Position numbers and translations under genes: made by a program
In this document: positions 24,943-59,191 of the stretch, piece by piece
How positions within the stretch are numbered: position 1 is the first letter of the stretch
Layout: the number at the start of each line of letters is the position of its first letter
The notes under the pieces: model-generated
The model's database searches: none
What the model saw: only the letters and a program-made list of their open reading frames with translations
Told to the model about the DNA's origin: nothing
Source: Chloroflexota bacterium
Lineage (GTDB): Bacteria > Chloroflexota > Anaerolineae > DTLA01
NCBI GenBank assembly: GCA_014360805.1
Contig: JACIWU010000006.1
Span: 8,199 to 72,198 of the forward strand
Direction of reading: 5' to 3'
Length of the DNA stretch: 64,000 nt

Positions 24943-24979
24943 GCAAAACGAATCGGCTGCCCGGAAAGAGCAGCCGACA
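24943..24979 (-). terminator. intrinsic terminator in the tupBCA leader (riboswitch expression platform candidate)
   Basis: Minus-strand RNA has a 9-bp stem GUCGGCUGC / GCAGCCGAU with loop UCUUUCCGG, followed by UCGUUUUG. Confidence 0.6.
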
Positions 24980-24994
24980 TGGACAAAGGGCTGC

Positions 24995-25120
24995 GGTTCT
25001 CCTTTCCGAGCACGGGGGGCGTGGGTGTTTCCACCCGCACCGTTGGCCCGAGGGGTTGCCCCCTGGGCGCTGCGGCTGCGCGCCATGGGCCGTCGCCTTT
25101 AGGCCGCGCAGCTCGGAGAG
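24995..25120 (-). promoter_or_regulatory. Moco (molybdenum/tungsten cofactor) riboswitch candidate
   Basis: The minus-strand RNA starts CUCUCCGAGC and closes with GCUCGGAAAGGAGAACC (P1 CUCCGAGC/GCUCGGAG-like). Internal hairpins are GCUGCGCG..CGCGCAGC, GGGG-GCAA-CCCC and GGGUG-GAAA-CACCC. Its position upstream of a tungstate transporter is the classic context. The motif match is from memory, not a covariance model. Confidence 0.5.
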
Positions 25121-25148
25121 CCTGGCCGATATTCGGTTCTTCGCGGCA

Positions 25149-25177
25149 AATATACCACAGGTTGGGAACGCTGGCAA
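25149..25177 (-). promoter_or_regulatory. sigma-70-like promoter TTGCCA-17-TATATT (minus strand) for the riboswitch-tupBCA transcript
   Basis: Reverse complement: TTGCCA (25172-25177), a 17-nt spacer, TATATT (25149-25154). Confidence 0.45.
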
Positions 25178-25186
25178 GTACAGGCT

Positions 25187-25256
25187 GATTTGGATTCGGT
25201 TCCGTCTTTTGTTGGTGACCAAGGTGCGACGCACTTTCGGAAGTGCGTCGCACCTG
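25187..25256 (+). repeat. REP-like family C unit
   Basis: GGATTCGGTTCCGTCTTTTGTTGGTGACCAAGGTGCGACGCACTTTCGGAAGTGCGTCGCACCT contains a perfect 15-bp hairpin AGGTGCGACGCACTT/AAGTGCGTCGCACCT. Confidence 0.85.
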
Positions 25257-25308
25257 TCCTATGGCGCGACCCACAGACTTTGGAACCGAATCTACAGGCT
25301 CTCACGAT

Positions 25309-38943: not shown

Positions 38944-38973
38944 TTGACAAGTGCTAGAAAAAGGTTGTATAAT
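38944..38973 (+). promoter_or_regulatory. strong sigma-70-like promoter TTGACA-18-TATAAT in a locally AT-rich patch, upstream of the giant gene
   Basis: TTGACA at 38944-38949 and TATAAT at 38968-38973. This implies a 5' UTR of about 255 nt before ATG 39235. Confidence 0.5.
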
Positions 38974-39234
38974 ACATAATGTAACGAGGAGTCTGATGCT
39001 CTGGGGCCTTGTCGCACCATGCGGCTGGGCCGGCTGCCTTTCGGCGCGAGAGAGGCGGTTGGCGCATGGGCGAGAAGGTGGCACCCCGCCGCTTGTTTCC
39101 ACAAAAACGATAACAACCGAAGAAAGCGCCGAGGCACGAAGGCGCGAGTTCGTGCATGGGCGGGAAGTCCGGCGGAAAGCGCTGCGGCTTCGTTTTGCCC
39201 TATGCGCAGACCAGTGCGTACAAGGAGGCCTGTC

Positions 39235-42200
39235 ATGAGGAAGGCAACATGGTTGGGCGTGGTTGTACTCGTAGCGCTTGCGCTGGCGGTCGGGATGGGG
39301 TTGGCGGTGTGGCCCGCCCATGCGGCGCCCGGCATCCTGCTGGTGAAGACCTCCGATGCTGGCGGAACGGCTGTGCCGGGCCAGGTCATCCAGTACACTA
39401 TCTGGATCACGAACACCGACCCGGGGCCCGTTACGCTGGAGGTGCGCGATGACCTGCCGTCGCAGGTGCAGTACATCGGCGGCAGCGCCGTGGCCGCCTC
39501 GCCTCTGACGTATGCCGACGACTTCGGCGTGGTCAGTTGGTCCAACAACACCGGTACGGCCAACTGGGCCGGGCCGTGGGTGGAGACCAACGATGCCATC
39601 GGCCCCCACATCGGCGACCTCGTGATTGAGAATGACGCTGGAAGTTATCGCCTGCGCATGCGCGCCGCCAACAAGTCCGTGGAACGCCCCGCTGACACCT
39701 CCACCATGATCCAGCCCACGCTGCGCTTTATCCGCAAGTTGTGGTCGGTGGAGACGAACGACTGGTTCTACCTGGACGTGTACGATGGCGGAGTGTGGCA
39801 CAATGCCGTCATGTCCTGGAGCGTAGGCTCCACGCAGGATGTTTACGTTGCCGAGGAAGTGAACCTCACCCCCTATAAGGCCTCCAATCTTGCGATTCGG
39901 TTCCGCACGGGCTCGTCCGTGAGCACCGGCGATGTCATGTACGTGGACGATGTGGAGATTTACGACAAGGGCACCGCCCTGGCAGCGCCGCCGGTTATGA
40001 CGACCAGCCTGGTGGTGGAAGCGGGCGCGGCGAAGGTGGTGCGCCTGTCGGCCGTGGTCCTGCAGCCCCTGTCTGGCGGCACCCTCATGACGAACACCGC
40101 CACCGTGAAGAGCGGCGCTGTTGTGCTGGCGACGGCCCAGGTTACCGACGTGCTCCAAGCGCCGATCCTGGCGATCACCAAGCAGGCCGTTCCCGCTGTC
40201 GTAGAAGCGGGCGAGCGCATCACCTACACGGTGCGGGTTACCAACACCGGCACCACGACGGCCAACAATGTGTCCATCTACGACCCGGTGCCGGCGAACA
40301 CGTCCTACGTGGGCGGGAGCGTGCAGTTGACCGGGTTCTTGCCTGAGGGCGCGCCTTCAATCGGGCCACGCGCCACGCTGTGGGACTCGGAGCACGCGAG
40401 CCTGGTGCGCGCGCGGCTCGCCCCGAGCATTGAGATTGCGGGCGTGGGCGCGCCGCCGTGGATTTTGACCGGCCACACCCTGGCCCCCGGCCAGGCGGTT
40501 ACCGTTACGTTTGAGGTGCAGTCGCAGGCCCCGCTGACCAACGGCCTGACCATAACCAATACGGCCTCGGTAACGTGCACGCAGATCATCACGCCGGTTT
40601 CGGCGTCGGCGTACACGACCGTGCACAGCAGCCCCTCGCTGACCATCACCAAGTCCTCGCAGATTGTGGGCACGCCGCCGCTGAACCCCGACGACACGCT
40701 GCGCTACGTCATCACGCTGACCAACTCGGGCAACGGCAACGCCACGGGCACGGTGGTGAGCGACACGCTGCCTGCGAACACAACGTTTGTGCCCGGCAGC
40801 GTGGTGATTTCGCCGTCTTCTGCAGGCGGCACGCCGGGAACCCCGCCCAACATCGCCACGGGGATCTCTGTGCCTGGCATGGGCGGCTCGGTAACCGTGC
40901 AGTTTGACGTCAAGGTGGACAAGCCCCTGCAGAACGGCACGGTGATCACCAACACCGCCGCGACTCGCTGCACCGAGGACGCGACCTGGCAGGTCTCGTC
41001 GCCGGTTACGAATACCGTCGTCAGCGCGCCCTACGTGGTGGCGACCAAGTCGGCCCAGGACATGACGGGCGGCGCGCCGCTGCGCCCGGGCGACGTGCTA
41101 AGTTACACCGTCGTGATGACCAACGTGGGCACCATGAACTACTACAACCTGGGGCACAACGAGTTCGTGGACATCCTGCCCCTCACCTACGCCTCGTATG
41201 TGGCGGGTTCGCATACGGCGTCTAGTGGCACTATCACTTTCGGGACCGACCGCGTCCGCTGGAACGGCGACCTGCTGGTGGGCCAGCCGGTTACGCTGTC
41301 GTTCGCCATTCAGTTGAGCACCCCACTGACCAACGGCCTGACCATCACCAACACTGGCGAGGTGCGTTACGACAGCGACGGCGACGGCGACTACGACGGG
41401 CTGGACATCCCCGCGCAGACCAATGCCGTCGTCAGCACGATCACGGCCTCGCCCAACATCGTGGTTACGAAGACCTCGGCGGACATGACCGGAGGCGCGC
41501 CGCTGCAGCCCGGCGACCAGTTGCGCTACGAGATCGTCTTCACCAACACGGGCGACATGGACGCGGTGGACATGGTGCTGACCGACACCATCCCCGCGAA
41601 CACGACGTTCGCGATTGCGGGCGCCGTTCCTGGCGGCGGGACGCTGGTCTCCACCAGTCCGGTGCTGCGCATTGAGGGTATTGACCTGGCGGCGGGGGCT
41701 TCGGCGTCGTTCGCGTTCCGCGTGAACCTGGACAGCGTCATCACGGTGGGCACGTCCATCACCAACCGCGCCTACATCCTCTACGACAGCGACGGCGTGG
41801 GCGGCAACGACACGCTGGCGCAGTCCAATCTCGTCTCCGACGCGGTAACCAGTTCGCCGCAGTTCACGCTGACCAAGCAGGCGCACAGCGCAACGATTGT
41901 GCCCGGCCAGCCGGTAACGTATACCATCGTCCTGACGAACACGGGCGATGCCCCCGCCACAGGCGTCGTCGTGAGCGACACGCTGCCGCCGCAACTCACC
42001 TTCGTGCCGGGCAGCGTAACGATTGCGCCGGCCTCGGCAGGCGGGACGGCCGGGACGCCGCCGCAGATCGCCACGGGCATCAGTGCGCCCGTGGGCCAGC
42101 CGATTACGGTTACCTTCCGGGCCACCCTGGCGCGCCCGCTGGACAACGGCACCGTCATCACCAACACGGCGGGCGTCTGGTGCGCCGAGAACGCAACGCC

Positions 42201-45200
42201 CGTTGCCAGCGCGCCTGCAACCTTCACCGTTGCGAGCGCGCCGGCGGTGGCAGGCGTGAAGACCATGCAGGACCTGAACGGCGCGCCGCTGCGCCCCGGC
42301 GACCAGGTGCGCTACACCCTCATCGTAACCAACACCGGCACCATGGACCAGGGCGACTACTCGGGCAACGAGATTCGCGACGCCCTGCCCACGTACACGT
42401 CGTTCGTGAGCGGGACCCTGTTTGCCTCGTCGGGCACGGCCACCTACGACAGCGTGAACCGGCGCGTCCTGTGGAACGGCCCGCTGCCGGTGGACCAGCC
42501 GGTTACCATCGTGTTTGACGTGCTGCTGGATAACGCCATCCCCAACGGCACGGTCATCCAGAACCGCGGGCGGCTGTACTGGGACGATGACGGCGACAAG
42601 GCCAACAACCGCACCACTTACACGCCCTACGCCTCGGGCACGGTGCTGAGCGCGCCGCTGATGGTGGCGCACAAGACCTCGCTGGACCTGAACGGCGGCG
42701 TGTTTGAGCCTGGCGACGTCATCAGTTACACCGTCGTCATCACCAACATCGGCAACATGGATCAGCCGGACATTCCGTCGCACTTTGAGTTCTACGACCC
42801 CATCTTCCCGGGGCTCACCTACAAGCCTGGGACAGCGACCCAGCCTTGGGGGACGTGGGGCATTGACGGAACGTCGGTGAAGTGGACAGGCCCCATCACC
42901 GTGGGCGTGCCGCTCACGCTCACGTGGGCGATGGACGTGGGCGTCCTCAGCCACGGCACGGTGGTTACCAACGCCGCCGAAATCCGCTACGACAGCGACG
43001 CCGACGGCGACTGGGATGCCAATGATGTTGTCGTTACGACCAACATGACCCAGGACACGATTTACTATCTGTCCTCGCTGTACGCGACCAAGATATCCGA
43101 GGATATGACGGGCGGAGCGCCGCTGGAACCGAACGACGTCATCCGCTACACCGTCATCATCACCAACACGGGCAACCGTCCTGTTGCGGGCGCGGTCTTC
43201 ACCGACTCGGTGCCCGCGAATACGACGTTCCTGGACGTGCCCACCATTCCGGGCGGCGCGGTCAACGAGAGCACCTCGTCGCAGGTGAAAATCTCCAACA
43301 TCTCCATCCCGGCCAATGGCGGCAGCGTTACGATTCAGTTCCGCGTGCGGGTGAACCTGCCGCTGTGGGATGGCACGGTCATCAGCAACCAGGGCTACGT
43401 GCGCTACGACCGCGACGGCCTGGGCACCTACGAGATGATCCCCACCGACGACCCGCGCACGCCCGCCCTGAACGACCCGACGCAGGACACGGTAACCTCG
43501 GCGCCGTCGCTGGTGGTGACCAAAACCGCCCAGGACATGGACGGGGGCAATCTGCGCCCGGGCGATGTGCTGAGTTACACACTGATCATCACCAACACCG
43601 GCACCGAGAACGCGGTCAACGTCGCGGTAACCGACCCCGTACCGGCGAACACCACCTTCGTGCCCGGCAGCGTTACTCGCGAGCCGGCGTCGGCAGGCGG
43701 GACGCTGGGCGCGCCGCCGAATCTGGTGTCGGGCATGGTGATCACGGCGCAGACGTCGGTTACGCTGACGATGGCCGTGCAACTGGACACGCCGCTGGAC
43801 AACGGCACGCTGATTACCAATACCGCGACTGTGAGCGCCGACCGCCTGTCGCCCATCACGGCGACGGTAACGAATACGGTTACCAGCGCGCCCATCGGCA
43901 ACGTGGCCAAGATAGGCACGGACGTGAACGGCGGCAATGTGGTGCCCGGAGACCGCCTGGACTTCCAGGTGGTGCTGTGGAATACCGGCGACATGAACCA
44001 GGGCGACAACGCGTACGACGAGTTCTGGGATGTCCTGTCGCCCAACGTAACGCTGGTGCCGGGCACCCTGGCGTCCACGTCGGGGACGGCGACGTACAAT
44101 TCCGGCGAGCACCGCATTGAGTGGAACGGCCCGGTCAACGTGGGCCAGCCGGTTACCATTACCTACAGCGCCGACGTGAACCTGCCGCTGAACAACGGCA
44201 CCAGCATCCAGAATACCGCCTACTTCACCTATGACGGCGACGGCGACGGCGTCAACGAGACAACCGTAACGTCGTCGGCGAACTTCACGGTAGTAAGCGC
44301 GCCGTTTGTGGTTGCGCACAAGTCGTCGCTGGACGTGAACGGCTACCCGCTGCGCCCCGGCGACATCCTCAGTTACACCGTCGTCTTGACCAATGTCGGG
44401 ACGATGGACTACCTGAACCTGGGCCACCACGAATTCGTGGACATCCTGCCGCTCGCGAATGCCACCTATGTGGCCGGTTCGCACACGGCCTCCAGCGGCA
44501 CCATCACGTTCGCTACCGACCGCGTCCGCTGGGACGGCGACCTGCTAGTGGGCCAGCCGGTAACCCTGACCTTCGCCATCCAGTTGAACACGCCGCTGCC
44601 CAACGGGACGGACATCGTGAACCAGGGCGAGTGCCGCTACGATAGCGATGGCGATGGCGACTACGACGCTTCGGACACCCTTGCTTACACCAATACCGTG
44701 ACGGACACGGTTACCAGCGCCGCCGTGATAGAGATAACGAAGTACTCCGAGGACATGACCGGAGGCGCGCCGCTGCAGCCCGGCGATGAACTGCGCTACA
44801 CCATCAACTTCACCAACACCGGCGACATGGACGCGGTGGACATGGTGCTCACCGACACCATCCCCGCGAACACGACGTTCGCGATTGCGGGCGCCGTTCC
44901 TGGCGGCGGGACGCTGGTCTCCACCAGTCCGGTGCTGCGCATTGAGGGTATTGACCTGGCGGCGGGGGCTTCGGCCCAGTTCCGCTTCCGCGTTACGCTG
45001 GACAGCGTGATCCCCGTGGGCACGTCCATCGTCAACCGCGCCTACATCCTGTACGACGCCGACGGCAACGGCTCCATGGAGTCGCTGCGGCAGTCCAACG
45101 AGGTGGTAGACCCGGTTACCAGCGCGCCTGTGCTGGCCATCAGTAAGTCGGCGACAGACGTGAACGGCGCGCCGCTGGTGCCCGGCGACACGCTGCGCTA

Positions 45201-51200: not shown

Positions 51201-54200
51201 GCCCAACACCGGCTGGGTGCGCTGCACCGAGTGGCCCGATGCCGTGTCGTCCACGTTCAATACGCAGGTGCACAGCACGACGGTGCTGCAGGTTACTAAG
51301 GCGTCGCAGGACGTGAACGGCGGCGATTTGCAACCGGGCGACGTGCTGCGCTATCGCCTGACGGTGGAGAACGCGGGCAACCAGAATCAGGCGGATAACC
51401 CGGGCAACGAACTGGTGGACGTCATCCCAGTCAACACGACCTACGTGCCCGGCTCGGCCACGGCTACCAGCGGCGTGGTCATCTACAACGCGGGCATGAA
51501 CCGCATAGAGTGGAACGGCGCGGTGAACGTGGGCACGCCGATAGAGGTAACCTTTGACGTGCAGGTGAACAACGGCCTGGCCAACGGCACCGTCATCGCC
51601 AACCACGCCACGTCGTACTACGACGCCGACGGCGATGGCTCCAACGAGTCCACGGTGGACAGCAACACGACCGAGGATACCGTCGTGAGCCGCGTTACCA
51701 TCGTCGCCACGAAGGTGTCCGAGGACCTGAACGGCGGGCTGCTGGAGCCGGGCGACACCCTGCGCTACACCATCGGCATCACCAACACCGGCAGCATGGA
51801 TCAGCCCGATTCGCCCGCGCACGAGTTGCAGGACGAGTTGCCGGCGCACACGCACTACGTGCCCGGGTCGCTGTCGGCCACGAGCGGGACCGCGCTGTTC
51901 GTGGAAGGCACCACTATCCAATGGGACGGCGCGCTGCCCGCCGGTGGGGCCGTAACCATCCAGTTCTCGGTTACGGTAGACGAGGGCACGCCCAACAACA
52001 CCGTCATCTCCAACCAGGGCTGGGTGTTCTACGACAGCAACGGCGACGGCCAGGTCAACGAGGACGACACGCCCAAGGTAACCGACGATCCGCGCGTGCC
52101 TGGACCCGACAACCCGACCGAGGACCGCGTGGGCTACGCGCCGCTGCTGCAGGCGACGAAGATCTCCGTTGACCAGAACGGCGGGTTCCTGGAGCCGGGC
52201 GACATCTTGGTATACACCATCGTCCTGCACAACATCGGCAACGCCGCCCTGGTGAACAACGTGGATCCCGAGTTCCTGGACAACATCCCGGCCAATACGA
52301 CCTACCTCGTGGGCACGGCGAGCTGGACGGTGGGTTCGGTAACGCTGAACCCGACCAACACGCAACTGCGCTGGGATGGCACGCTCAACCCCGGCCAGGC
52401 GACGGCCATCACCTTCCAGGTGCAACTGGATTCGCCGCTGGCCCACATGACGCAGATTTGCAACCAGGGCACCGTGTACTACGACGGCGACGGCGACGGC
52501 ACCAACGAGTCCACCGTGCCCACAGACGACCCGCGCACATCGGAGAAGGACGACGCGACCTGCGACACGGTGGTGAGCGGGCCGATCCTGAGCGTGGACA
52601 AGTCGTCCGAGGACGTGGACGGCGGCCAGTTGCTGCCCAGGGACATGCTGCGCTACACCGTAACCATCAGCAACACGGGCAACGACGCCGCCACCAACGT
52701 GGCCATCAGCGACACCCTGCCGCCGGAGGTAACGTGGTTTGACAGCGTGTCGGTCAACCCGCCGTCGGCCGGCGGCACGCCTGGCGACCCGCCGATGGTG
52801 GTAACCGGCATGACAGTCCCGGCGGGGCAGACCGTAACGGTGAGTTATCTGGTGCGGGTGAACAGCCCGCTGCCCAACGGCACGGTCATCACCAACACGG
52901 CGGAGGTCTCGGCCGACAGGATTGAGCCGGTCTCGGCGACGGTTACGGACGTCGTGGCCAGCGACCACATCCTGGCGCTGAGCAAGACCGCATCGCCCAA
53001 GCCGGTGCAAGCGGGCGACCTGCTGACCTACGCCATTGCCTACGAGGTCATCGGCGACGAGCCGGCGCCGCTGGCGGTCATCACCGACCGCGTGCCCGCG
53101 AACACCGAGTTCGTGGACGCGAGCGACGGCGTTACGCCGGTGGGCGGGGTGCTGGTGTGGAACCTGGGGACGCTGCCCGCGCCCGCGACGGGCGAGGTAA
53201 CCTTCACGGTGCGGGTGAACACGCCGCTGCCGCGCGGTACGGCAATCGCCAACACCGCGTACTTCCGCGACCAGGACGGGCGCAGCGCCTCGGCCACCGA
53301 CACCACGCTGGTAACCAGCGACCACAGCCTGGCGCTGGCGAAGCTGGACCTGGTGGATCCGGTGCAGGCGGGCGAATTGCTGACCTACACGCTGACGGTG
53401 GAGGCTACGGGCAACGAACCCGCGACCAACGTCATCGTCTCCGACGGCATCCCCGCCGGCACGACGTTCCACTCGGCCAGCGGCGGCGATTCCATGGAGT
53501 CGCCGCCTGTGGGCCAGCCCGGCATGGTGCGCTGGACGCTGAACACGGTGAACCCGGGCGAGCCGGCGGTGGTAACGTTGACCGTGCGGGTGGACCTGTC
53601 GGTGCCCAATGGCACCAGCATCCTCAACTGGGCCAGCGCCCTGGACGATCAGGGCAAGGGCGCGACGGCCTCGGCGTCCACCCTCGTGGAGAATACCGAC
53701 GTGAGCATCGCCAAGACGGTGGAGCCGGCCACGGTCAAGTCGGGCGATGTCCTCACCTACACCATCGCCTACATGAACGCAGGGCCCGCCGCGGCGCTCA
53801 ACGTGCGCATCACCGACACGCTGCCCTCGGGCCTGACGTTCGGCGGCGTGGTGCACGCGGAGCCGGGCGTGGTCGGGCCGTCGCAGGTGGGCCAGGACTT
53901 CATCTGGTCGGTGGGCACGCTGCCGGCGGGCGCCAGCGGCACGCTGGTGTTCACGGCGACGGTGGACCCCACGGGCGAAACCGAGCGCACGCTCACCAAC
54001 GTGGCGGTCATCGGCACGAGCACCGCCGAGCGGAACTACGGCAACAACACCGCAACGGCCAGCAACACGCTGCGCCAGCAGATCAACGTGCGGGTGAACA
54101 AGCAGTCGTCGGCGGGCGGGTTGGTGCAGCCCGGCGCGGAGATTCAGTACACCGTAACGGTGGAGAACATCGGCGATGGCATCGTGTCGGGCCTGACGAT

Positions 54201-55548
54201 TTCGGACACGGTGCCGGCCAACACGACCTTCGTGCCCGGCAGCATCACGCTGGATCCGCCCGGCGCGGGCACGCCTGGGTTCACGCCGCCCACGCTGGCG
54301 AGCAACGTGTCCATCCCGATGGGCGGGAGCGTAACGGTGCGCTATCGGGTGCGCGTGGCGGCCCCGCTGGCCAACAACACGCCCATCGTCAACACCGCCG
54401 AGGCCAGGGATGGCGGGCTGCCCGTGCCGGTGCAAGCGAGCATCACCGACCTGGTGCAGAGCAGCCACACGCTCAGCCTGCTGAAGTTGGACACGCCTGA
54501 CCCGGTGCAGGCCGGCGGGCTTCTGACCTACACGGTGCAGTACCAGGTCATGGGGAACGAGCCTGCCAACGGCGTGGTGCTCACGGATACGCTGCCTGCC
54601 AACGTAGTGGTGCAGAGCATCAGCGGCGGTGGCGTGCAGAGCGGCAACCAGATCACCTGGGACCTGGGCAACCTGGCGCCGCCCGCCACAGGCAGTGTGA
54701 GTGTCGTGGTGCGGGTGAACTCGCCGCTGCCCAACGGCACGGTGCTGGTGAACCGCGCCACCATCGCCGACGCGCAGGGCGCTACGGCCAACGCGACGGC
54801 GTCCACGACGGTGCAGAGCGCCCCGGCGTTCCGCGTCTCCAAGTTGGCGCCGGCGACGGTGCGGGCGGGCGACATCCTGACCTACACCATCGTCTTCACC
54901 AACACCGGCAACGCCTATGCCACATCGGTGGTCATCACCGACCGCATCCCGGCGAATACCGAATGGCATTCGGGCGGGCACTCGCACACGGCCACCGAGG
55001 TGCGGTGGAACGTGGCCAGCATGGCTCCGGGCATCACGGGTTACGCGGTCTTCTCGGTGCGGGTGCTGCCCGACACGCCGGTCGGGACCGTGATCCTGAA
55101 CAGCGACTACGGCGTGCGGTCGGCGGAACTGCCCGCGGCCACGGGCGGCGCTCCGCTGGCGGTAACCGTAGCGCCGCCCACGGGCATCACGCTGGAGTAC
55201 TTCCGGCTGCGGCGCGTGGGGCCATCGGTGGAACTGGAATGGCGCACGGCCACCGAGATCAACAACCGCGGGTTCAACGTGTACCGCGGCACGACGGACA
55301 ACTTTGACGAGGCGGTGCGCTTGAACAGCGAGTTGATTCCGGGTCAGGGGCGTGGTCTGGCCGGCGGCGCGACCTACACGTTTACCGATACGGGCGTGGA
55401 ACCCGGCCACACGTACTACTACTGGCTGGAGGACATTGACCTGTACAACAACGTGCAGGCGCGCATGCTCCGCTCCATCGGCGTGTACGCGTACATCCCG
55501 GACGAGGCCCGCAAGTACACGGCGCGGCTGCCGTTCGTGTGGCGCTAG
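39235..55548 (+). CDS. giant secreted surface protein (~5437 aa) built from DUF11-type (conserved repeat domain) Ig-like repeats with five nested jelly-roll inserts and a C-terminal FN3-like domain
   Basis: ORF 39019..55548. ATG 39235 follows AAGGAGG (39222-39228) and gives the signal peptide MRKATWLGVVVLVALALAVGMGLAVWPAHA. By my manual count, about 34 repeats carry the pattern L.Y.I.[VI].N.G...A..V...D.[LIV]P.NT.[FYW].PGS. The C-terminus ends WRTATEINNRGFNVYRG...YYYWLEDID...ARLPFVWR. Confidence 0.9.
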   Translation: MRKATWLGVVVLVALALAVGMGLAVWPAHAAPGILLVKTSDAGGTAVPGQVIQYTIWITNTDPGPVTLEVRDDLPSQVQYIGGSAVAASPLTYADDFGVVSWSNNTGTANWAGPWVETNDAIGPHIGDLVIENDAGSYRLRMRAANKSVERPADTSTMIQPTLRFIRKLWSVETNDWFYLDVYDGGVWHNAVMSWSVGSTQDVYVAEEVNLTPYKASNLAIRFRTGSSVSTGDVMYVDDVEIYDKGTALAAPPVMTTSLVVEAGAAKVVRLSAVVLQPLSGGTLMTNTATVKSGAVVLATAQVTDVLQAPILAITKQAVPAVVEAGERITYTVRVTNTGTTTANNVSIYDPVPANTSYVGGSVQLTGFLPEGAPSIGPRATLWDSEHASLVRARLAPSIEIAGVGAPPWILTGHTLAPGQAVTVTFEVQSQAPLTNGLTITNTASVTCTQIITPVSASAYTTVHSSPSLTITKSSQIVGTPPLNPDDTLRYVITLTNSGNGNATGTVVSDTLPANTTFVPGSVVISPSSAGGTPGTPPNIATGISVPGMGGSVTVQFDVKVDKPLQNGTVITNTAATRCTEDATWQVSSPVTNTVVSAPYVVATKSAQDMTGGAPLRPGDVLSYTVVMTNVGTMNYYNLGHNEFVDILPLTYASYVAGSHTASSGTITFGTDRVRWNGDLLVGQPVTLSFAIQLSTPLTNGLTITNTGEVRYDSDGDGDYDGLDIPAQTNAVVSTITASPNIVVTKTSADMTGGAPLQPGDQLRYEIVFTNTGDMDAVDMVLTDTIPANTTFAIAGAVPGGGTLVSTSPVLRIEGIDLAAGASASFAFRVNLDSVITVGTSITNRAYILYDSDGVGGNDTLAQSNLVSDAVTSSPQFTLTKQAHSATIVPGQPVTYTIVLTNTGDAPATGVVVSDTLPPQLTFVPGSVTIAPASAGGTAGTPPQIATGISAPVGQPITVTFRATLARPLDNGTVITNTAGVWCAENATPVASAPATFTVASAPAVAGVKTMQDLNGAPLRPGDQVRYTLIVTNTGTMDQGDYSGNEIRDALPTYTSFVSGTLFASSGTATYDSVNRRVLWNGPLPVDQPVTIVFDVLLDNAIPNGTVIQNRGRLYWDDDGDKANNRTTYTPYASGTVLSAPLMVAHKTSLDLNGGVFEPGDVISYTVVITNIGNMDQPDIPSHFEFYDPIFPGLTYKPGTATQPWGTWGIDGTSVKWTGPITVGVPLTLTWAMDVGVLSHGTVVTNAAEIRYDSDADGDWDANDVVVTTNMTQDTIYYLSSLYATKISEDMTGGAPLEPNDVIRYTVIITNTGNRPVAGAVFTDSVPANTTFLDVPTIPGGAVNESTSSQVKISNISIPANGGSVTIQFRVRVNLPLWDGTVISNQGYVRYDRDGLGTYEMIPTDDPRTPALNDPTQDTVTSAPSLVVTKTAQDMDGGNLRPGDVLSYTLIITNTGTENAVNVAVTDPVPANTTFVPGSVTREPASAGGTLGAPPNLVSGMVITAQTSVTLTMAVQLDTPLDNGTLITNTATVSADRLSPITATVTNTVTSAPIGNVAKIGTDVNGGNVVPGDRLDFQVVLWNTGDMNQGDNAYDEFWDVLSPNVTLVPGTLASTSGTATYNSGEHRIEWNGPVNVGQPVTITYSADVNLPLNNGTSIQNTAYFTYDGDGDGVNETTVTSSANFTVVSAPFVVAHKSSLDVNGYPLRPGDILSYTVVLTNVGTMDYLNLGHHEFVDILPLANATYVAGSHTASSGTITFATDRVRWDGDLLVGQPVTLTFAIQLNTPLPNGTDIVNQGECRYDSDGDGDYDASDTLAYTNTVTDTVTSAAVIEITKYSEDMTGGAPLQPGDELRYTINFTNTGDMDAVDMVLTDTIPANTTFAIAGAVPGGGTLVSTSPVLRIEGIDLAAGASAQFRFRVTLDSVIPVGTSIVNRAYILYDADGNGSMESLRQSNEVVDPVTSAPVLAISKSATDVNGAPLVPGDTLRYTLTINNTGNAPAEQTVISDTLPANTTWADNITINPPSAGGTPGTPPNIVTDLTVPVGTPVTVTFDVTVNRPTPNGTIIRNRADVSALGAPTPVLSNQVSRTVSAPVFDISKVSEPMTVTPGSLMTYTIYITNTGPVAANDLSVVDTLAPYVTYVPDSAGLKVPTVYADDFESNTYSGNTGNTDFASNWVESGDDASSSSGNILLISNLGSRRLRLNGNGTSAMYIRRNVGDVLPFTAPHVAFDARAVSLEAGDTFRFDVYDGAAWQIVYTWSGPLSEAGYTTRDFDISGYASADLRIRFWVSSANDSGDYLYVDNVRVYDAGTPIDPPPNLLSGYMLNAGEAITLTFNVTATSPLTNGLSIVNEAGVYCYELPVPQYVTATSTVDSSVSLAATKTSIDLNGGDVTPGDTLRYQVVLTATGAGIATNTSIVDPLPANTTWQDNVTVTPPGGVAGSPPNVLTGLSVPGGSTVTVTYDVQVNAPLAEGTVITNTATISSPDIPAALTTTVTDTVHTAALAISKAADSSPIVAGGVVTYIITVQNTGATTATNVVVTDTLPPEVTYIPGSTLIASAFTYADDFGSGDYSGSTGTQPWAGAWTESPADGGPLSGDITVVSESGSLRLHVSGTSKTIRRQADIRSMFYPVLEFDRKLVGMESGDTFTLELYNGSTWTTVRSWNGPADESGYTHEVVDLSGYKASNFRLRFGSGPANAADDHLYVDNVIIYDTGVPGNAPPVLTDTLSIGPGMAMNVSFQGNVASPLDNGSTITNHAGASSQQTPTPVLAQLVSTISSAPDVQVTKTSFDPSGYPLRPDEVLNYTIVLNNVGTMNQHDNPGFELLDVIPTNTTYVPGSLFFTSGSGAYNAGLNRIEWDGAVNVGQPVTVSFSVRTNPLLVNGTPIYNLAVLNYDTDGDNTNDGTRASPVIDLITSAPFVVAHKTSVDVDGAPLRPGEIISYTVVFTNVGDMDQLDKPGAEFLDDIPANTTYITGSKWASSGSVTYNSTYNRIAWNGNLPVGVPVTVKFAVQLDNPLPNGTAIVNTGRAFYDADGDGTTNEAVALAGPITDTVTSAPRIEITKDAVDVNGAPLEPGDVLAYDITITNSGNMNAVDMVFTDTIPAHTSYLSVENLPAGAVLAATSPELRITNLNVNAGTAVTFRVNVTLDLPLPNGTVISNQGMLAYDADGDGSNESLAPTDDPTTPAINDPTVRTVVSGPVLVVTKTSSDLNGAPLGPNDLLQYQVVIRNDGKADATSVVVSDTVPAFTTWQDAVTIDPASAGGVIGAPPLIVSGMTVGAQQSVTLTYRVQVSAGVVDGTPIVNRVQVQCAEDPTWRTAVLTDTAYAPVLQISKIGEPNPVEAGAVLTYTILVSNTGGYPTGNVSLADTLPAQVAYVPGSTVLAVTTTYADDFESMTYSGSTGTHAWASNWVESPGDGGPLAGDVGILSESLSRRLHVSGASKYAWRQADLMPFLKPTLRFDRKLVSLDGPSDYFRVEIWNGVAWTPLQTWTGPADDGAYYTETFDLSAFIVSGARIRFRSGPSNSVDDHLYVDNVMIYDAGVPGGAPPVLATGLTLQPRTTLRATFQVQVNSPLPNGTTLVNSASVTSQHFPTPIVATMMNTVHSAPNIQVDKTSLDVNGGLLAPYDVLRYQVVIRNTGNADATNVNLTDELPAYTTWVGNVSISPVSAGGIPGTPPNVATGMTVRGGESVTVTYEVRVMRPVIDGTDIVNTASVSSLQAPGPFTDTITDTVHSPTLLIGKGGTPQPVDAGELVTYTIAITNSGTLTATGVVVSDTLPPQITYVPGSSTWRLGATYADTFSIYSYSENDGTVNWTSNWNEQNDDGLPTSGDVGMVWDLGSLRLSVRNANRAIWRQANINYFYQPRVRFDRRIVGLEAGKAFYLDVYNGSVWQVAQTWFGPLDEADYTTIVVDLTPYKSTATRIRFRAGTTLDSADTMYVDNVEIYDEAQAGGSPGSLVTGATIPPGASLVVQLTGRVASPLPNGTTLPNTGWVRCTEWPDAVSSTFNTQVHSTTVLQVTKASQDVNGGDLQPGDVLRYRLTVENAGNQNQADNPGNELVDVIPVNTTYVPGSATATSGVVIYNAGMNRIEWNGAVNVGTPIEVTFDVQVNNGLANGTVIANHATSYYDADGDGSNESTVDSNTTEDTVVSRVTIVATKVSEDLNGGLLEPGDTLRYTIGITNTGSMDQPDSPAHELQDELPAHTHYVPGSLSATSGTALFVEGTTIQWDGALPAGGAVTIQFSVTVDEGTPNNTVISNQGWVFYDSNGDGQVNEDDTPKVTDDPRVPGPDNPTEDRVGYAPLLQATKISVDQNGGFLEPGDILVYTIVLHNIGNAALVNNVDPEFLDNIPANTTYLVGTASWTVGSVTLNPTNTQLRWDGTLNPGQATAITFQVQLDSPLAHMTQICNQGTVYYDGDGDGTNESTVPTDDPRTSEKDDATCDTVVSGPILSVDKSSEDVDGGQLLPRDMLRYTVTISNTGNDAATNVAISDTLPPEVTWFDSVSVNPPSAGGTPGDPPMVVTGMTVPAGQTVTVSYLVRVNSPLPNGTVITNTAEVSADRIEPVSATVTDVVASDHILALSKTASPKPVQAGDLLTYAIAYEVIGDEPAPLAVITDRVPANTEFVDASDGVTPVGGVLVWNLGTLPAPATGEVTFTVRVNTPLPRGTAIANTAYFRDQDGRSASATDTTLVTSDHSLALAKLDLVDPVQAGELLTYTLTVEATGNEPATNVIVSDGIPAGTTFHSASGGDSMESPPVGQPGMVRWTLNTVNPGEPAVVTLTVRVDLSVPNGTSILNWASALDDQGKGATASASTLVENTDVSIAKTVEPATVKSGDVLTYTIAYMNAGPAAALNVRITDTLPSGLTFGGVVHAEPGVVGPSQVGQDFIWSVGTLPAGASGTLVFTATVDPTGETERTLTNVAVIGTSTAERNYGNNTATASNTLRQQINVRVNKQSSAGGLVQPGAEIQYTVTVENIGDGIVSGLTISDTVPANTTFVPGSITLDPPGAGTPGFTPPTLASNVSIPMGGSVTVRYRVRVAAPLANNTPIVNTAEARDGGLPVPVQASITDLVQSSHTLSLLKLDTPDPVQAGGLLTYTVQYQVMGNEPANGVVLTDTLPANVVVQSISGGGVQSGNQITWDLGNLAPPATGSVSVVVRVNSPLPNGTVLVNRATIADAQGATANATASTTVQSAPAFRVSKLAPATVRAGDILTYTIVFTNTGNAYATSVVITDRIPANTEWHSGGHSHTATEVRWNVASMAPGITGYAVFSVRVLPDTPVGTVILNSDYGVRSAELPAATGGAPLAVTVAPPTGITLEYFRLRRVGPSVELEWRTATEINNRGFNVYRGTTDNFDEAVRLNSELIPGQGRGLAGGATYTFTDTGVEPGHTYYYWLEDIDLYNNVQARMLRSIGVYAYIPDEARKYTARLPFVWR
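39507..39972 (+). other. jelly-roll (MAM/LamG-like by pattern) insert module 1 of 5 (approximate bounds)
   Basis: TYADDFGVVSWSNNTGTANWAGPWVETND ... FYLDVYDGGVWHNAV ... IRFRTGSSVSTGDVMYVDDVEIYDKG. Confidence 0.6.
41017..41860 (+). repeat. intragenic duplication, copy 1 (two DUF11-type repeats)
   Basis: Protein segment VVSAPYVVATKS...VTSSP is paralogous to copy 2. The core 41551-41705 differs at a single nt from 44821-44975. Confidence 0.85.
44290..45130 (+). repeat. intragenic duplication, copy 2
   Basis: VVSAPFVVAHKS...VTSAP. The offset between identical cores is 3270 nt, which is in frame. Confidence 0.85.
45694..46167 (+). other. jelly-roll insert module 2 of 5 (approximate bounds)
   Basis: VYADDFESNTYSGNTGNTDFASNWVESGDD ... 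FRFDVYDGAAWQIVYTWSGP ... LRIRFWVSSANDSGDYLYVDNVRVYDAG. Confidence 0.6.
46918..47382 (+). other. jelly-roll insert module 3 of 5 (approximate bounds)
   Basis: FTYADDFGSGDYSGSTGTQPWAGAWTESPADGGPLSGD ... FTLELYNGSTWTTVRSWNGP ... FRLRFGSGPANAADDHLYVDNVIIYDTG. Confidence 0.6.
49395..49863 (+). other. jelly-roll insert module 4 of 5 (approximate bounds)
   Basis: TTYADDFESMTYSGSTGTHAWASNWVESPGDGGPLAGD ... FRVEIWNGVAWTPLQTWTGP ... RIRFRSGPSNSVDDHLYVDNVMIYDAG. Confidence 0.6.
50620..51084 (+). other. jelly-roll insert module 5 of 5 (approximate bounds)
   Basis: ATYADTFSIYSYSENDGTVNWTSNWNEQNDDGLPTSGD ... FYLDVYNGSVWQVAQTWFGP ... RIRFRAGTTLDSADTMYVDNVEIYDEA. Confidence 0.6.
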
Positions 55549-55565
55549 CACAATAAGAACAGTCG

Positions 55566-55601
55566 GCGGGGGCGGCGGTGCGTGAGGCTGTCCGCCCCCG
55601 C
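55566..55601 (+). other. GC-rich stem-loop between the giant gene and the C25 peptidase gene
   Basis: 10-bp stem GCGGGGGCGG / CCGCCCCCGC with a 16-nt loop and no U-tract. It could be an mRNA-stabilising or partial terminator element. Confidence 0.4.
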
Positions 55602-55650
55602 GGCTCATCTGGGGCTTGTTCTCATCGCGGCTCCCGACGGAGAGAGGCTC

Positions 55651-58600
55651 ATGAATCGGAAGGTAGCACTGGGTTGCCTGGTAGCGGTGCTGTTGCTGGG
55701 CGCGGTTACGGCGCAGGGGGCGCACCCCGAACCCACCTGGGGGCAGGAGCCGATGCCCGAGGTGCGTCTGGTTTCGGGCGACGCCGAGACGATCGTGTTG
55801 GACATCCTGACACCGCGCCCGACGGTGCGTGAGGTGCAGGTTGGGGGTGAGACCTGGCACGAGGTGCGGGTGGCCGGGCTTGCGACGGCTGCGGAGCCGG
55901 GTGCGCCGCAACTGCCCGTGCAAACGGTCATGCTGGGCATTCCGCCAGGGGCCACGTGGCAGGTGCAGTTGGAGAGCACCGACCGCGTGCTTCTGGAGGG
56001 GCCATACCGCGTAGCGCCAGCGCCCTCGGTTCGCGTCGCGCGCGCTGGCCGGGCCGACGACGGGGCGTTCGCCTACGAGGAGATGATGCTCCCCGATGCC
56101 CGCGTCTACGGCGCTCCCACCTACTATCCCGCCGAGGTCGTGGAAGAGGCCGGCAGCGGCTATCTCCGCGACCAGCGGTTTCTTTCCCTTCGCATTTATC
56201 CCGTGCGTTATCAGGCGGCCAGCGGACAGTTGGAGTGGTACGCGCGGATGCGGGTGCGCGTGCACTTGGTCGGCGCCGACCTGGCGGCGTGCGACGGCGA
56301 GCAGGACGGCTACTTTGAGCCGGTGCTCCGCGCCGCCATCCTCAACTATGAACAGGCGAAGGCATGGCGTTCGCGCGAACCTTCCACCGTCGCGGCGCAG
56401 ACCGGGCCTATCTGCGGCATCGGCCCGCAGTACAAGGTCATCGTCGGCGCCGAGGGCCTGCACGAGATTACCTACGCGGACCTGGTAGGGGCGGGCTTCC
56501 CCGTTACCTCGGTGGACCCCGCGCGGCTCACCATGTGCTTCATGGGCCAGGAAGTGGCCATCCAGGTTGTCGGGCAGGAAGACCACATCTTCAACCCGAG
56601 CGACCGCATCCTGTTCTACGCAGTTGTGCCGAGCAGCCGATACACGAACACCGGCACGTACTGGTTGAGTTTCGGCGCGGCGGATGGGAAGCGGATGCAG
56701 ACGAAGAGTGGGGCCGTCAGCCCGGCGACGCCCTACGCCCCGACGCATACGGTTACGGCCGTCGCCGAGCGGTCGCTGGAATATGATAGCAAGTACGCCT
56801 CGCCCAAGGGCGATCACTGGTTCTGGGATACCCTTCACTGGCTGGACGTTGCGCCGTACACGCCGCGCTCCTACGCGCTCCAGTTGACCGAGCCGCCCGC
56901 CGGAGTCGCCAACGCGGTCCTGCGCGTTGGGCTTCAGGGGCGCGACGCCAACTTGCACGAATTGAACTTCACGTTCAACGGCCTTTCGCTGGGCAGCCGG
57001 CAGTGGGCAGGCGAGGAGTATCGGTCGCTCTCGTTCCTCGTCCCGACAACGGCGCTGCGCCTGGGGGCCAACACGCTGACCCTCTCCAGCAAGGACCGTG
57101 GCGCGACGTTGGACTACGTGTGGCTGGATTTCTTCAGCGTGGAGTACAGCGCGCGCAATGTGGCCGCCGACGGCCGGTCCCTCGCGTTCAGGGGGCAGGC
57201 AGGACCGGCCCGCTACTGGATCACCGGCTTCGCCGAGGGGGATGTGTCGGTATACGACGTTTCGGACTCGCGTAATCCCGTGCAGATCACCGGCATCCCG
57301 ACCGAGACGGTTCGCTGGGTGCGGCTGCCGTCGGTCTGGAAGCGGAGCGGCGCAGGCGCGGCGGAAGTCGGCGTCGCCGCGGGCCAGGAGGACGCATCGG
57401 CCCAGGCGGCTGCGACGGTGTACGGCGTGGCGTTCCAGGGGAATGAGGCGTCGGCGCCGAGATACTGGGTGGGCGCGTCCGGCGCGGTGAGGCGGCCGCT
57501 GTCCATCGCGGCCGATCCCGTTACGAACTGGCGCTCGCCGGCCCTGGGCGCGGACTATCTCATCCTCACCGACCCATCGCTGGCTGCCGAGGCCAATCGC
57601 CTTGTGGCCTATCACCAGGACCAGGGGCTTCAGCCGCTCGTGGTGTACGTGCAGGACATCTACGACGAGTTCAACTACGGCCAGGCGGATCCCGGCGCCA
57701 TTCGCGCCTTCTTGCAGTACGCCTATGACCAGTGGAGCATGAAGCCGTCCTACGTGCTCCTGCTGGGCGATGGCAGTTACGACTTCCTGGACTACAAGGG
57801 CTTCGGCGCGGGGCAGATGGTTCCGCCGTTCCTGGCTCCGGTGGACAAGACCATGGGCGAGACGGCCACCGACCACCGGTATGTGGCCGTGCACGGCGAC
57901 GACGTGCTCCCCGACATGTACATCGGCAGGCTGCCCGCCGCGACGCCGGCCCAGGCGAAGACCATGGTGGACAAGATTCTCCAGTACCCGACCGCGCCCG
58001 GCGCGGGCACGTGGGACAGGGAGATTATCCTGGTGTCGGACAAGCCCGATGCTCCCAACTACAACAACTTCATCCAGGCGTCCGATGAGATGTACGAGTG
58101 GCTGGGGATCGTGGCCCCTGCCTACGCGCGAACCCGCGTGTACTACAACCCCGGCGTCAGCGGCGTGCCGTGGATTCACGGCACAATCGCGGCGGCCAGG
58201 GCGGCCCTGTTCTCCGAGTTCAACCAGGGCGCGCTGTTCTGGAACTTCATGGGGCATGCCTCCGAGCACCAGTGGGTGGCCGACCGCCTGCTCCACGTGG
58301 ACGATGTGCCGGCCCTGGCCAACGGCGCGCGCCTGCCGGTGCTCCTGGAGATGACCTGCCAGACCGGGCAATTCCACCTGCCGGTGGCGTCGCCAACCCA
58401 GGAATGCCTGGCCGAGCAGTTGATTCGCCACGCGGGCGGGGGCACCGTGGCCAGTTGGTCCTCCACCGGATGGGGGATGGCGACGGGCCACGATGTCATG
58501 CAGCAGGGGTTCTACGACGCCGTGTTTGCGCAGGGGATTCGGCAGTTGGGTCCCGCGGTGGCTATTGGCACGGTTTGTGCATACAACGCAGGGTACAGCG

Positions 58601-58653
58601 ACCTGGTGGATACGTTTGTGTTGTTTGGCGACCCTGCGCTGTTCGTGCGTTAG
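55651..58653 (+). CDS. peptidase C25 family (gingipain/PorU-like cysteine peptidase) with propeptide-like N-terminal domain (1000 aa)
   Basis: ORF 55582..58653. ATG 55651 follows GGAGAGAGG and gives the signal MNRKVALGCLVAVLLLGAVTAQGA. Catalytic-domain blocks: YLILTD...VVYVQDIYDEFNYGQ, YVLLLGDGSYD, DMYIGRLP, His block FMGHASEHQW, Cys block LLEMTCQTGQF. Confidence 0.85.
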   Translation: MNRKVALGCLVAVLLLGAVTAQGAHPEPTWGQEPMPEVRLVSGDAETIVLDILTPRPTVREVQVGGETWHEVRVAGLATAAEPGAPQLPVQTVMLGIPPGATWQVQLESTDRVLLEGPYRVAPAPSVRVARAGRADDGAFAYEEMMLPDARVYGAPTYYPAEVVEEAGSGYLRDQRFLSLRIYPVRYQAASGQLEWYARMRVRVHLVGADLAACDGEQDGYFEPVLRAAILNYEQAKAWRSREPSTVAAQTGPICGIGPQYKVIVGAEGLHEITYADLVGAGFPVTSVDPARLTMCFMGQEVAIQVVGQEDHIFNPSDRILFYAVVPSSRYTNTGTYWLSFGAADGKRMQTKSGAVSPATPYAPTHTVTAVAERSLEYDSKYASPKGDHWFWDTLHWLDVAPYTPRSYALQLTEPPAGVANAVLRVGLQGRDANLHELNFTFNGLSLGSRQWAGEEYRSLSFLVPTTALRLGANTLTLSSKDRGATLDYVWLDFFSVEYSARNVAADGRSLAFRGQAGPARYWITGFAEGDVSVYDVSDSRNPVQITGIPTETVRWVRLPSVWKRSGAGAAEVGVAAGQEDASAQAAATVYGVAFQGNEASAPRYWVGASGAVRRPLSIAADPVTNWRSPALGADYLILTDPSLAAEANRLVAYHQDQGLQPLVVYVQDIYDEFNYGQADPGAIRAFLQYAYDQWSMKPSYVLLLGDGSYDFLDYKGFGAGQMVPPFLAPVDKTMGETATDHRYVAVHGDDVLPDMYIGRLPAATPAQAKTMVDKILQYPTAPGAGTWDREIILVSDKPDAPNYNNFIQASDEMYEWLGIVAPAYARTRVYYNPGVSGVPWIHGTIAAARAALFSEFNQGALFWNFMGHASEHQWVADRLLHVDDVPALANGARLPVLLEMTCQTGQFHLPVASPTQECLAEQLIRHAGGGTVASWSSTGWGMATGHDVMQQGFYDAVFAQGIRQLGPAVAIGTVCAYNAGYSDLVDTFVLFGDPALFVR

Positions 58654-58741
58654 GGAACGCCAGGGGGCAGGGGCGCGAAACCTGCCTCTCGGCGAGATTA
58701 GAGATTGGCCCCAGGGTAGTGCCTTTAGGGAGGAAAGGGAG

Positions 58742-59191
58742 ATGTACATCATGAACCGCAATAGACTGGCTCTGGCGGGGCTTGTGCTGTTGATGGGCCT
58801 GTTGGCGTTGGCCCTGGCGCCGGAAAGCCCGCCTGCGGGCACGGCGCTGGCGTTGGGGTTCACGTCCACGCCGACGTTCACGCCCGAGGCCCCAACGGCG
58901 ACACCCGTCCCGCCCACGGCAACGGCCACACCTGTGCCGCCCACGGCCACGGCGACGGCTGTCCCGCCGACCGCCACGAGCGTGCCGACCATCGCGCCAC
59001 AGCCCACGCAGCCGCCCGCGCCGCAGCCGACGCAGCCGCCTGCGCCGGAGCCGACCGCCACGCCGGTCGCCGCGCCGTCCAAGTCGGTGCCGAAGACCGG
59101 ATCGGGCCTGTTGGGTATCGTGGTGGCCGGGGCGCTGGCCGTGATCCTGGTAGGCGTCCGGAAGGCCCGCACGCGCGCTATCCACGAATAA
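58742..59191 (+). CDS. small Pro/Thr-rich surface protein with sortase-type tripartite signal VPKTG-TM-RKAR (149 aa)
   Basis: GGGAGGAAAGGGAG precedes ATG 58742. It has a signal peptide and TPVPPTATA / PQPTQPPA repeats, then SVPKTG (59087-59101), GLLGIVVAGALAVILVG and RKARTR. The stop codon lies inside a family B repeat. Confidence 0.7.
   Translation: MYIMNRNRLALAGLVLLMGLLALALAPESPPAGTALALGFTSTPTFTPEAPTATPVPPTATATPVPPTATATAVPPTATSVPTIAPQPTQPPAPQPTQPPAPEPTATPVAAPSKSVPKTGSGLLGIVVAGALAVILVGVRKARTRAIHE

Follow-up and report, generated by a model that had tools for sequence, protein, structure and literature searches.

In P. gingivalis, the C25-family cysteine peptidase PorU strips the C-terminal domain (CTD) from type IX secretion system (T9SS) cargo proteins and links the cargo to anionic lipopolysaccharide (A-LPS) by transpeptidation, and PorU is itself a CTD protein (PMC10202324). 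The DUF11 domain, recently renamed CLIPPER, has been established as a domain that builds the stalks of fibrillar adhesins and contains isopeptide bonds; the isopeptide Lys/Asn/Asp triads are missing from some DUF11 domains (PMC12617251). A further element is curated in NCBIfam as the "YLP-box putative sorting motif" (NF050076, sort_motif_YLP, and NF053834, ultrashort_CTERM), without an assigned enzyme, and no mention of the YLP-box was found in the searchable literature. In Pseudomonas, the giant repeat adhesin LapA is encoded with a dedicated cysteine protease, LapG, a periplasmic enzyme of another protease family, which acts on the N-terminal retention module of the adhesin under the control of cyclic di-GMP via LapD. 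Here, a stretch of 64,000 nucleotides from a Chloroflexota bacterium (contig JACIWU010000006.1; hereafter the window) is described in which three adjacent genes encode a giant secreted protein of the fibrillar-adhesin type (the giant), a PorU-like C25 peptidase and a small stalk protein with a VPKTG motif near its C-terminus. The conservation of this trio points to an uncharacterised route of surface-protein processing or anchoring in bacteria without a T9SS.

The locus is like LapA/LapG in that the gene for a very long repeat adhesin is accompanied by one for a dedicated cysteine protease, which could control the retention of the adhesin at the surface, whereas none of the other parts of the Pseudomonas system (the LapG protease family, the N-terminal retention module, control via LapD) is found here. 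To our knowledge, neither a T9SS nor A-LPS is to be expected in Chloroflexota.

Gene order and conservation

The three co-directional genes lie behind a sigma-70-type promoter (TTGACA-18 nt-TATAAT; 38944..38973, +) which matches the consensus at 12 of 12 positions, compared to 0.2 such sites in shuffles of the region. It is followed by an unusually long 5' leader of ~260 nt (38974..39234, +), in which a riboswitch was sought and no Rfam family was found at gathering score, and AAGGAGG precedes the start of the giant gene at 39235. The intergenic gaps are exactly 102 and 88 nt, a Shine-Dalgarno-like sequence is located ahead of each gene, and no terminator-like sites were found between the genes; the strong promoter and the tight co-directional arrangement claimed in an earlier note on this DNA are both present where it had placed them. 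In the window the trio is flanked by housekeeping genes (ROK kinase, PNPase and signal peptidase I). The three genes are best explained as a single operon for surface proteins, belonging to an uncultured member of the Chloroflexota with the label Anaerolineae or Caldilineae.

The order giant, C25 peptidase and VPxTG stalk protein is kept in at least ten independent assemblies, labelled Anaerolineae, Caldilineae or Chloroflexota metagenome-assembled genomes (MAGs), at a C25 identity of about 59-94%. The co-occurrence of these genes, which the earlier note had proposed as a check on its reading, is thus confirmed within one clade, and the complete giants in these loci are of nearly constant length (5434-5437 aa). 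The downstream flank varies, being MutS in several assemblies and PNPase in the window. As the order of the trio is kept while its flank changes, the trio travels as a unit.

The C25 peptidase and its relatives

The peptidase (55651..58653, +; 1000 aa) consists of a signal peptide, a propeptide-like domain at aa 30-235 (PF08126 Propeptide_C25, E 1.3e-15), Ig-like domains and a catalytic domain at aa 636-997 (PF01364 Peptidase_C25, E 1.4e-89, 301 bits against a cut-off of 23). The catalytic residues are His869 (58255-58257) in a GHASEH block and Cys903 (58357-58359) in an MTCQTG block, both on the forward strand. The histidine is invariant and the cysteine is found in 17 of the 18 aligned homologues; both align with the catalytic GHG(S/G) His and (A/T)C Cys of RgpB and PorU, as expected if the two blocks are intact, which the earlier note had claimed. 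The protein terminates directly after the catalytic domain (PALFVR*) and carries no C-terminal tag.

An AlphaFold2 model of the peptidase (mean predicted local distance difference test, pLDDT, 83; predicted template modelling score, pTM, 0.84) finds its best match in the Protein Data Bank, using Foldseek, in latent PorU (6ZA2 chain B; E 3.4e-29, 852 columns, TMq 0.42), with the catalytic domains and pro-domains of gingipains ranking behind it. Judged from its sequence and predicted fold, the peptidase is a PorU homologue and not a gingipain. Of the earlier label "PorU/gingipain-like", the first half thus holds for the fold and the nearest relatives, while the second half does not.

A scan of one genome per species gave more than 532 relatives of the peptidase, and among the 80 best-scoring loci, 70 are labelled as lineages of Chloroflexota (Anaerolineae, Caldilineales, Thermoflexales, Ardenticatenaceae and Herpetosiphonaceae). 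Homologues from T9SS phyla match the CTD model TIGR04183. On the PorU equivalog model (NF033707), which has a cut-off of 420 bits, the homologue L040 from KSB1 passes with 423.8 bits, and homologues from Cytophagia and Zixibacteria score 416.9 and 387.8 bits; these three, the closest relatives outside Chloroflexota, all have T9SS type A CTDs. Scores of the other Chloroflexota members range over 258-308 bits, and a CTD is missing from them. The peptidase shares with PorU the propeptide-like N-terminal domain, the Ig-like domains and the catalytic domain with its His/Cys dyad, and in most of its relatives the enzyme likewise bears the C-terminal tag of its own system. Unlike in PorU, the tag of these relatives is a YLP-box of ~7 residues, often behind an FN3 domain, instead of an 80-aa CTD, and a T9SS CTD is lacking in both the peptidase and the giant. 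In the trio clade the enzyme differs further by having an internal loop with the motif RLPSVWKR in place of any C-terminal tag.

The C-terminal module of the giant and a motif shared with the peptidase

The last 118 residues of the giant comprise an FN3 domain, here regarded as a "pre-anchor" module (aa 5320-5409; 55192..55461, +; 100 bits with a custom hidden Markov model, HMM; pLDDT 80-92), followed by a disordered 28-aa tail, RMLRSIGVYAYIPDEARKYTARLPFVWR, which ends in ...ARLPFVWR* (55462..55545, +; pLDDT <50). Foldseek on the AlphaFold2 model of the terminal domain returned ordinary FN3 folds, among them the FN3 domain of PelI and that of Ihog, and a T9SS-CTD-like fold was rejected. The pattern Y[IY]P[DE][ED]...RLPxxW[RK]* is kept in the tail of every trio locus.

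Neither Pfam nor NCBIfam matched any family to the tail, and the two YLP-box models, NF050076 and NF053834, gave no match at E<=5 to the last 150 aa of the giant. The last 7 aa (55525-55545, +), RLPFVWR, fit five of the seven positions of the pattern hydrophobic-L-P-hydrophobic-hydrophobic-x-[KR], sought in the last ~13 residues, and score 5.3 on a position-specific scoring matrix (PSSM) derived from 53 canonical tags, a value reached by 0.26% of null C-termini. The tail falls within the top 0.3-1.3% of null C-termini, with the tails of the other trio loci scoring from -1.3 to 5.8. As it is unmatched by the curated models and only in this upper range on the PSSM, it is referred to as a divergent YLP-box-like tail and not as a member of the family. 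Like the YLP-box, it is an extreme C-terminal x-L-P-hydrophobic-hydrophobic-x-[KR] motif that follows a flexible linker and an FN3 domain, and many canonical YLP-box proteins in related loci are built in the same way; unlike the YLP-box, it has Arg instead of an aromatic or aliphatic residue before LP, and Trp at +3. The earlier statement that the giant has no recognisable anchor is therefore valid for curated models, but its tail belongs to a recurrent module of FN3 plus a short LP-containing tail.

The same motif recurs within the peptidase. A clade-specific, disordered loop insertion at aa 557-587 (57319..57411, +; pLDDT <50) contains RLPSVWKR near its start (57322-57345), echoing the terminal RLP[FS]VW[RK] of the giants, of which those in L001, L003 and L009 end in RLPSVWR. 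The insertion, of ~30-45 aa, is situated within an Ig-like domain of the C25 proteins of the clade and is missing from distant homologues in the alignment. This loop and the end of the giant are the only two places at which RLP.VW was found in all six frames of the window. Of 12 close homologues, 10 retain RLPS[VI]W[KRA]R, with the remaining loop being variable. Such a pattern, seen in sequences and a model, fits a putative pseudo-substrate or latency element, an autoprocessing site that would generate a giant-like C-terminus, or a shared receptor-binding tag.

Genomic associations across the wider C25 family

The FN3 domain of the giant is associated with C25 genes far outside the trio clade. 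Using stop-to-stop frames for all counts of frames and open reading frames (ORFs) around C25 genes, 90 copies of the FN3 profile were found in 1.45 Mb, 89 of them on the strand of the C25 gene; this strand count covers all 89 loci searched, including three duplicates, and locus counts refer to the remaining 86. The domain is present in 63 of these 86 loci (73%). In 11 cases it lies within the C25 protein itself, and 35 of the 76 separate FN3 ORFs are located <=500 nt from the C25 gene. In the reverse test, a C25 gene was found in 13 of 79 FN3-centred metagenome loci, and in 4 of 17 (24%) when only loci >=15 kb were considered (the 79 plus L091). By our own estimate, one to three C25 genes in a genome of ~5 Mb would give a chance level of ~1%, so that the latter rate is well over tenfold above chance for a gene occurring once or a few times per genome. 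The FN3 profile matches 48,070 clusters at E<=1e-3, a number to be taken as a maximum, since the profile includes a portion of the CLIPPER domain upstream. No curated family was found in Pfam or NCBIfam for the FN3 members tested, and 18 diverse FN3-like domains gave only marginal Pfam matches (e.g. fn3 at E 0.025 in one).

The ending ...[YF]LP[LIV][IV]x[KR], followed by 0-6 residues, is seen in many C25 homologues of Chloroflexota; a strict pattern finds it in 28, and looser variants add to this number. This tag terminates 48 of 2328 frames on the C25 strand compared to 7 of 2311 on the opposite strand, with ~3 expected by chance, and 39 of the 48 tagged same-strand frames are C25 or FN3 proteins. 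Canonical tags pass the curated YLP models (L020, 17.2 against 15 bits; L075, 11.4 against 10). In the Chloroflexota relatives, the CTD of the T9SS relatives is replaced by a YLP-box tag or, in some, by a dockerin. In L004 (8315-11997) and L018 (9956-16983), dockerin-ended homologues are followed by genes for cohesin proteins with a canonical YLP-box at the C-terminus (VYLPLILKDW*), which suggests that the dockerin-bearing peptidase is held on a YLP-tagged scaffold via the cohesin-dockerin pair.

The stalk domains of the giant are also linked to this family. CLIPPER repeats are fused into the C25 protein ahead of the YLP-box in about a dozen distant loci, a separate CLIPPER-containing neighbour with a terminal FN3 domain occurs in 11 loci (five of them outside the trio clade), and proteins combining LTD, DUF11 and FN3 according to Pfam lie upstream of the C25 gene in several Anaerolineae-type loci. 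FN3 tails were also seen on an M14 carboxypeptidase, a SpaA-like protein and a beta-propeller protein encoded in the neighbourhood.

Among the sequences following the FN3 domain, the commonest is VSVDF..PTAVTLS..(A)LPWLW, a transmembrane (TM) segment and RRRR (L055, L062, L083, L086, L093, L120, L126, L129 and P0092-P0215), and two further short tails recur, PRxRxLPxRPRPAPxP and ATPR[WL]IYGxG[KR]. No curated sorting-signal model in NCBIfam or Pfam was found for examples of these recurrent tails (P0113, P0100, P0133, P0091 and the A5 domains). In about a quarter of the distant C25 loci (L004, L005, L019, L027, L048, L060 and about 20 others), the C25 strand also carries a cassette of ScmC-like/HprK-like, PqqD, radical-SAM (SPASM), S24-like peptidase and NTP_transf_5 genes, resembling a peptide-maturation system of the SynChlorMet type. 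This cassette is absent from the window and was rejected as a part of the trio module.

The adhesin stalk and the small protein

The giant (39235..55548, +; 5437 aa) starts with a Sec-type signal peptide, followed by ~40 Ig domains of the CLIPPER/DUF11 type with five inserted modules, the FN3 domain and the tail. Pfam matches to DUF11/CLIPPER reach E values of 1e-120 to 1e-147, accompanied by DUF7507, DUF7927 and DUF7619; the two halves of the protein contain 13 and 16 significant DUF11 stretches and score 467 and 458 bits on TIGR01451 and 154 and 118 bits on the isopeptide-domain model RrgB_K2N_iso_D2, while a custom HMM counts 40 CLIPPER-like repeats. The combination of a signal peptide and a tandem CLIPPER-type Ig stalk is that by which CLIPPER/DUF11 fibrillar adhesins are recognised. 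Like the described adhesins (PMC12617251), the giant has a long stalk of CLIPPER/CLIPPER_2/DUF7619-type Ig domains, matches isopeptide-forming models and has putative binding modules interspersed. Unlike them, it is extremely long, it ends in neither LPXTG, an OmpA-like domain, a T9SS CTD nor an archaeosortase signal, and it is strictly coupled to a C25 peptidase gene.

The five inserted modules are related to one another, ~150 aa in length, and located at 39511-39966, 45697-46122 (approx.), 46924-47376, 49402-49857 and 50626-51078, all on the forward strand (aa 93-244, 2155-2296 approx., 2564-2714, 3390-3541 and 3798-3948, respectively). Their consensus is YADDF...W..W.E....GD........RL.......R.A.....P.L.F.R......D.F.L..Y.G..W.......GP......Y.....L..Y.....R.RF.......D..YVDNV.IYD, and a weak match to choice-of-anchor J is the only one obtained. 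These modules are candidate ligand-binding domains.

The small stalk protein (58742..59191, +; 149 aa) comprises a signal peptide, the motif GFTSTPTFTPE (58856-58888), a Pro/Thr linker and a three-part end, VPKTG-SGLLGIVVAGALAVILVGV-RKARTR, in which VPKTG (59087-59101; aa 116-120) precedes a TM segment and basic residues. Searches of Pfam and NCBIfam matched no family to it, and the LPXTG_anchor model TIGR01167 gave 11.4 bits (E 0.41), below its cut-off of 15.9. Its family of 12 clusters shares the signal peptide, [LM]GFTSTPTxT[PA] near the mature N-terminus, a variable Pro/Thr linker, the TM segment and the basic end, with [VI]P[KN]TG[SA]G invariant throughout (VPNTG in the L089 copy) and lengths of 122-149 aa in the trio loci. 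The protein is found downstream of the giant and the peptidase wherever the context is visible and is confined to the trio clade, outside of which a different gene follows the C25 gene.

In common with proteins anchored by sortases, the stalk protein has an xPxTG motif, a hydrophobic segment and a basic end; it differs by scoring under the cut-off and in that no sortase gene was detected among the scanned ORFs of the window or in the visible flanks of related loci (L003 and L171). Variants of LPXTG of the SPKTG/PPKTG type occur in Clostridia. As VPKTG falls under the cut-off, a sortase signal, as proposed earlier, is plausible by its three-part shape only. The stalk protein could also simply be held by its TM segment.

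Other features of the window

A Moco (molybdenum/tungsten cofactor) riboswitch (24983-25130, -; 57.4 bits against a gathering score of 36) is located upstream of genes for an ABC-transporter permease (frame 24143-25258) and a PBP-like binding protein (22541-23608), which therefore probably form an uptake operon for molybdate or tungstate. At 4472-8482 (+), a secreted fusion protein of 1337 aa joins a C1 papain-family peptidase to a lectin-like domain, a ligand-binding domain of the Peripla_BP_6/ANF-receptor type and, at the C-terminus, two FxLYD domains, an unusual combination. The next gene (8524-10896) encodes a TIG and matrixin-like metalloprotease similar to the myxosortase-dependent metalloprotease family. 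A protein with NB-ARC and TPR domains (STAND-type NTPase) is encoded at 13497-15728 (-), and no family match was obtained for the secreted proteins near this gene (12202-13362, 1874-3337 and 3683-4468).

Discussion

It is tentatively suggested, as the best-supported reading but with a fair amount of doubt attached, that the C25 peptidase processes or attaches the giant through the C-terminal module of the latter, with the small anchored stalk protein as a local partner. The giant would be exported by the Sec system as an isopeptide-type CLIPPER Ig stalk with an FN3 domain and a short flexible end, ...RLPFVWR-COOH. After export, the peptidase would recognise the FN3-plus-tail module and then mature the giant or attach it at the cell surface, while the stalk protein, held in the envelope by its VPKTG/TM end, may act either as a tether for the peptidase, the own tag of which has been lost in this clade, or as an acceptor. 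The gene content, the conserved synteny, the PorU-like fold and relatives of the peptidase, the FN3 fold and the motif common to tail and loop are observed, whereas the giant as substrate, the position of a cut, any transpeptidation and a function of the stalk protein are inferred. In a wider perspective, the Chloroflexota clade may repeat the logic of PorU with other parts, given that an enzyme that usually bears a tag is encoded beside FN3-plus-tag proteins. The action of the C25 enzyme on the giant proposed in the earlier note is thereby supported in part: the conserved trio, the PorU-like character of the peptidase and the linkage to FN3 domains speak in its favour, but the giant is not truly devoid of a C-terminal signal, and the peptidase fails the PorU cut-off.

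Several observations weigh against this reading. All relatives derive from MAGs or metagenome contigs. The peptidase scores 270.6 bits on the PorU equivalog model against the cut-off of 420, and is therefore not a PorU equivalog; on the NCBIfam PorU2 model it scores 206 bits, also below the cut-off. No T9SS CTD of the Por_Secre_tail/TIGR04183 type was matched on the giant, its tail or the peptidase. The S1 pocket is uninformative with regard to cleavage specificity: the Asp at the position of RgpB Asp163 occurs in PorU too, although PorU makes no cut after Arg, and the specificity is hence not readable from the sequence. The loop motif is degenerate in the relatives of 59-62% identity (RLPSVPKQFKR, RLPAATRDH) though their giants keep the tail. 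The FN3 domain, which is nearly always near the C-terminus, is followed by several types of tail: a short hydrophobic-LP-hydrophobic-hydrophobic-x-[KR] tag, PTAVTLS with a TM segment and RRRR, only a few residues, other short motifs or, in T9SS phyla, a T9SS CTD. Proteins with an FN3 tail or a YLP tag are also found without a C25 gene within 10 kb. Finally, the giant ends at the Arg of its motif, so that transpeptidation at this point would lack a leaving group and any cut would be further upstream, e.g. close to the conserved YIPDEARKY or ahead of the FN3 domain.

The last of these points is compatible with a processing or release protease that performs no transpeptidation and instead trims the tail or the FN3 domain, cuts between stalk domains or sheds the adhesin, as in the processing of gingipain polyproteins or the release of LapA by LapG, with the stalk protein positioning the enzyme. 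The catalytic dyad and the propeptide-like domain are intact, the synteny with the giant is tight, the giants end at Arg or Lys with no leaving group, the Lys/Arg of canonical tags followed by 0-6 residues is compatible with trimming, and the RLPSVWKR loop could be an autoprocessing site. However, the architecture and the nearest relatives of the peptidase are those of PorU, a sortase-type member of the family, and not those of gingipains, and such a protease is considered a rather unlikely, though serious, alternative. A generic secreted protease with a nutritional function, by chance encoded beside a large surface protein, would be in line with the degradative role of C25 enzymes such as gingipains and with the other secreted peptidases in the window (the C1-family fusion at 4472-8482 and the matrixin-like protein at 8524-10896), but is highly improbable in view of a gene order kept at 59-94% identity despite changing flanks, the PorU-like architecture, the motif common to tail and loop, and the association of the family with same-strand FN3-tailed proteins.

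The giant and the peptidase might also both be clients of a separate sorter of YLP-box/FN3 proteins encoded elsewhere, in which case their adjacency would reflect co-regulation and the peptidase would have its real substrates among other proteins or polymers of the environment. Most of the C25 homologues in Chloroflexota bear the YLP-box themselves, some of them with an FN3 domain, and the occurrence of FN3-tailed proteins far from any C25 gene implies that the peptidase could be another cargo of such a sorter; the varied tails after FN3 and the diversity of the FN3-tailed neighbours (M14 carboxypeptidase, beta-propeller and SpaA-like proteins) are consistent with this. PorU, however, is likewise both cargo and sortase of its own system (PMC10202324), and a tag on the enzyme hence does not exclude an enzymatic role. 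Moreover, the trio is strictly conserved, the loop of the peptidase mimics the tail of the giant, and C25 genes occur in 24% of the larger FN3-centred loci as opposed to ~1% estimated by chance, which makes a common dependence on a distant sorter improbable on balance. Within the preferred reading, in which the peptidase acts on the giant, the more specific proposal that the giant is attached onto the stalk protein is unlikely; what speaks for it is the strict synteny, together with the motif conserved near the N-terminus of the stalk protein. Equally speculative is a general scheme with PorU-type C25 proteins as sorting enzymes for FN3/YLP-box proteins in Chloroflexota, and with a two-enzyme relay in which a sortase would fix the stalk protein to the wall, the C25 peptidase would join the processed C-terminus of the giant to the stalk protein (e.g. 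at GFTSTPTFTPE) or to another wall acceptor, and the RLPSVWKR loop would maintain latency as a pseudo-substrate.

C25/PorU sortases and CLIPPER adhesins are already known, each on its own, as are LPXTG-type anchors and the curated YLP-box motif. Nothing relevant on C25 or PorU in Chloroflexi/Chloroflexota was found in the literature searched, and in the accessible literature three features are apparently undescribed: a clade sister to PorU that extends through a phylum lacking T9SS tags, the tight genomic link of this clade to an uncurated FN3 "pre-anchor" domain and the YLP-box, and a compact trio in which a loop of the enzyme copies the tail of the adhesin.

The trio represents a compact and tractable case of only three genes, in which the enzyme and its candidate substrate share a recognisable motif. 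If the C25 peptidase is the sorting enzyme of the YLP-box, an orphan signal gains a mechanism. This would help to explain how giant adhesins are displayed by Chloroflexota, which are common in activated sludge, digesters and sediments, and how the filamentous members of the phylum build their surface.

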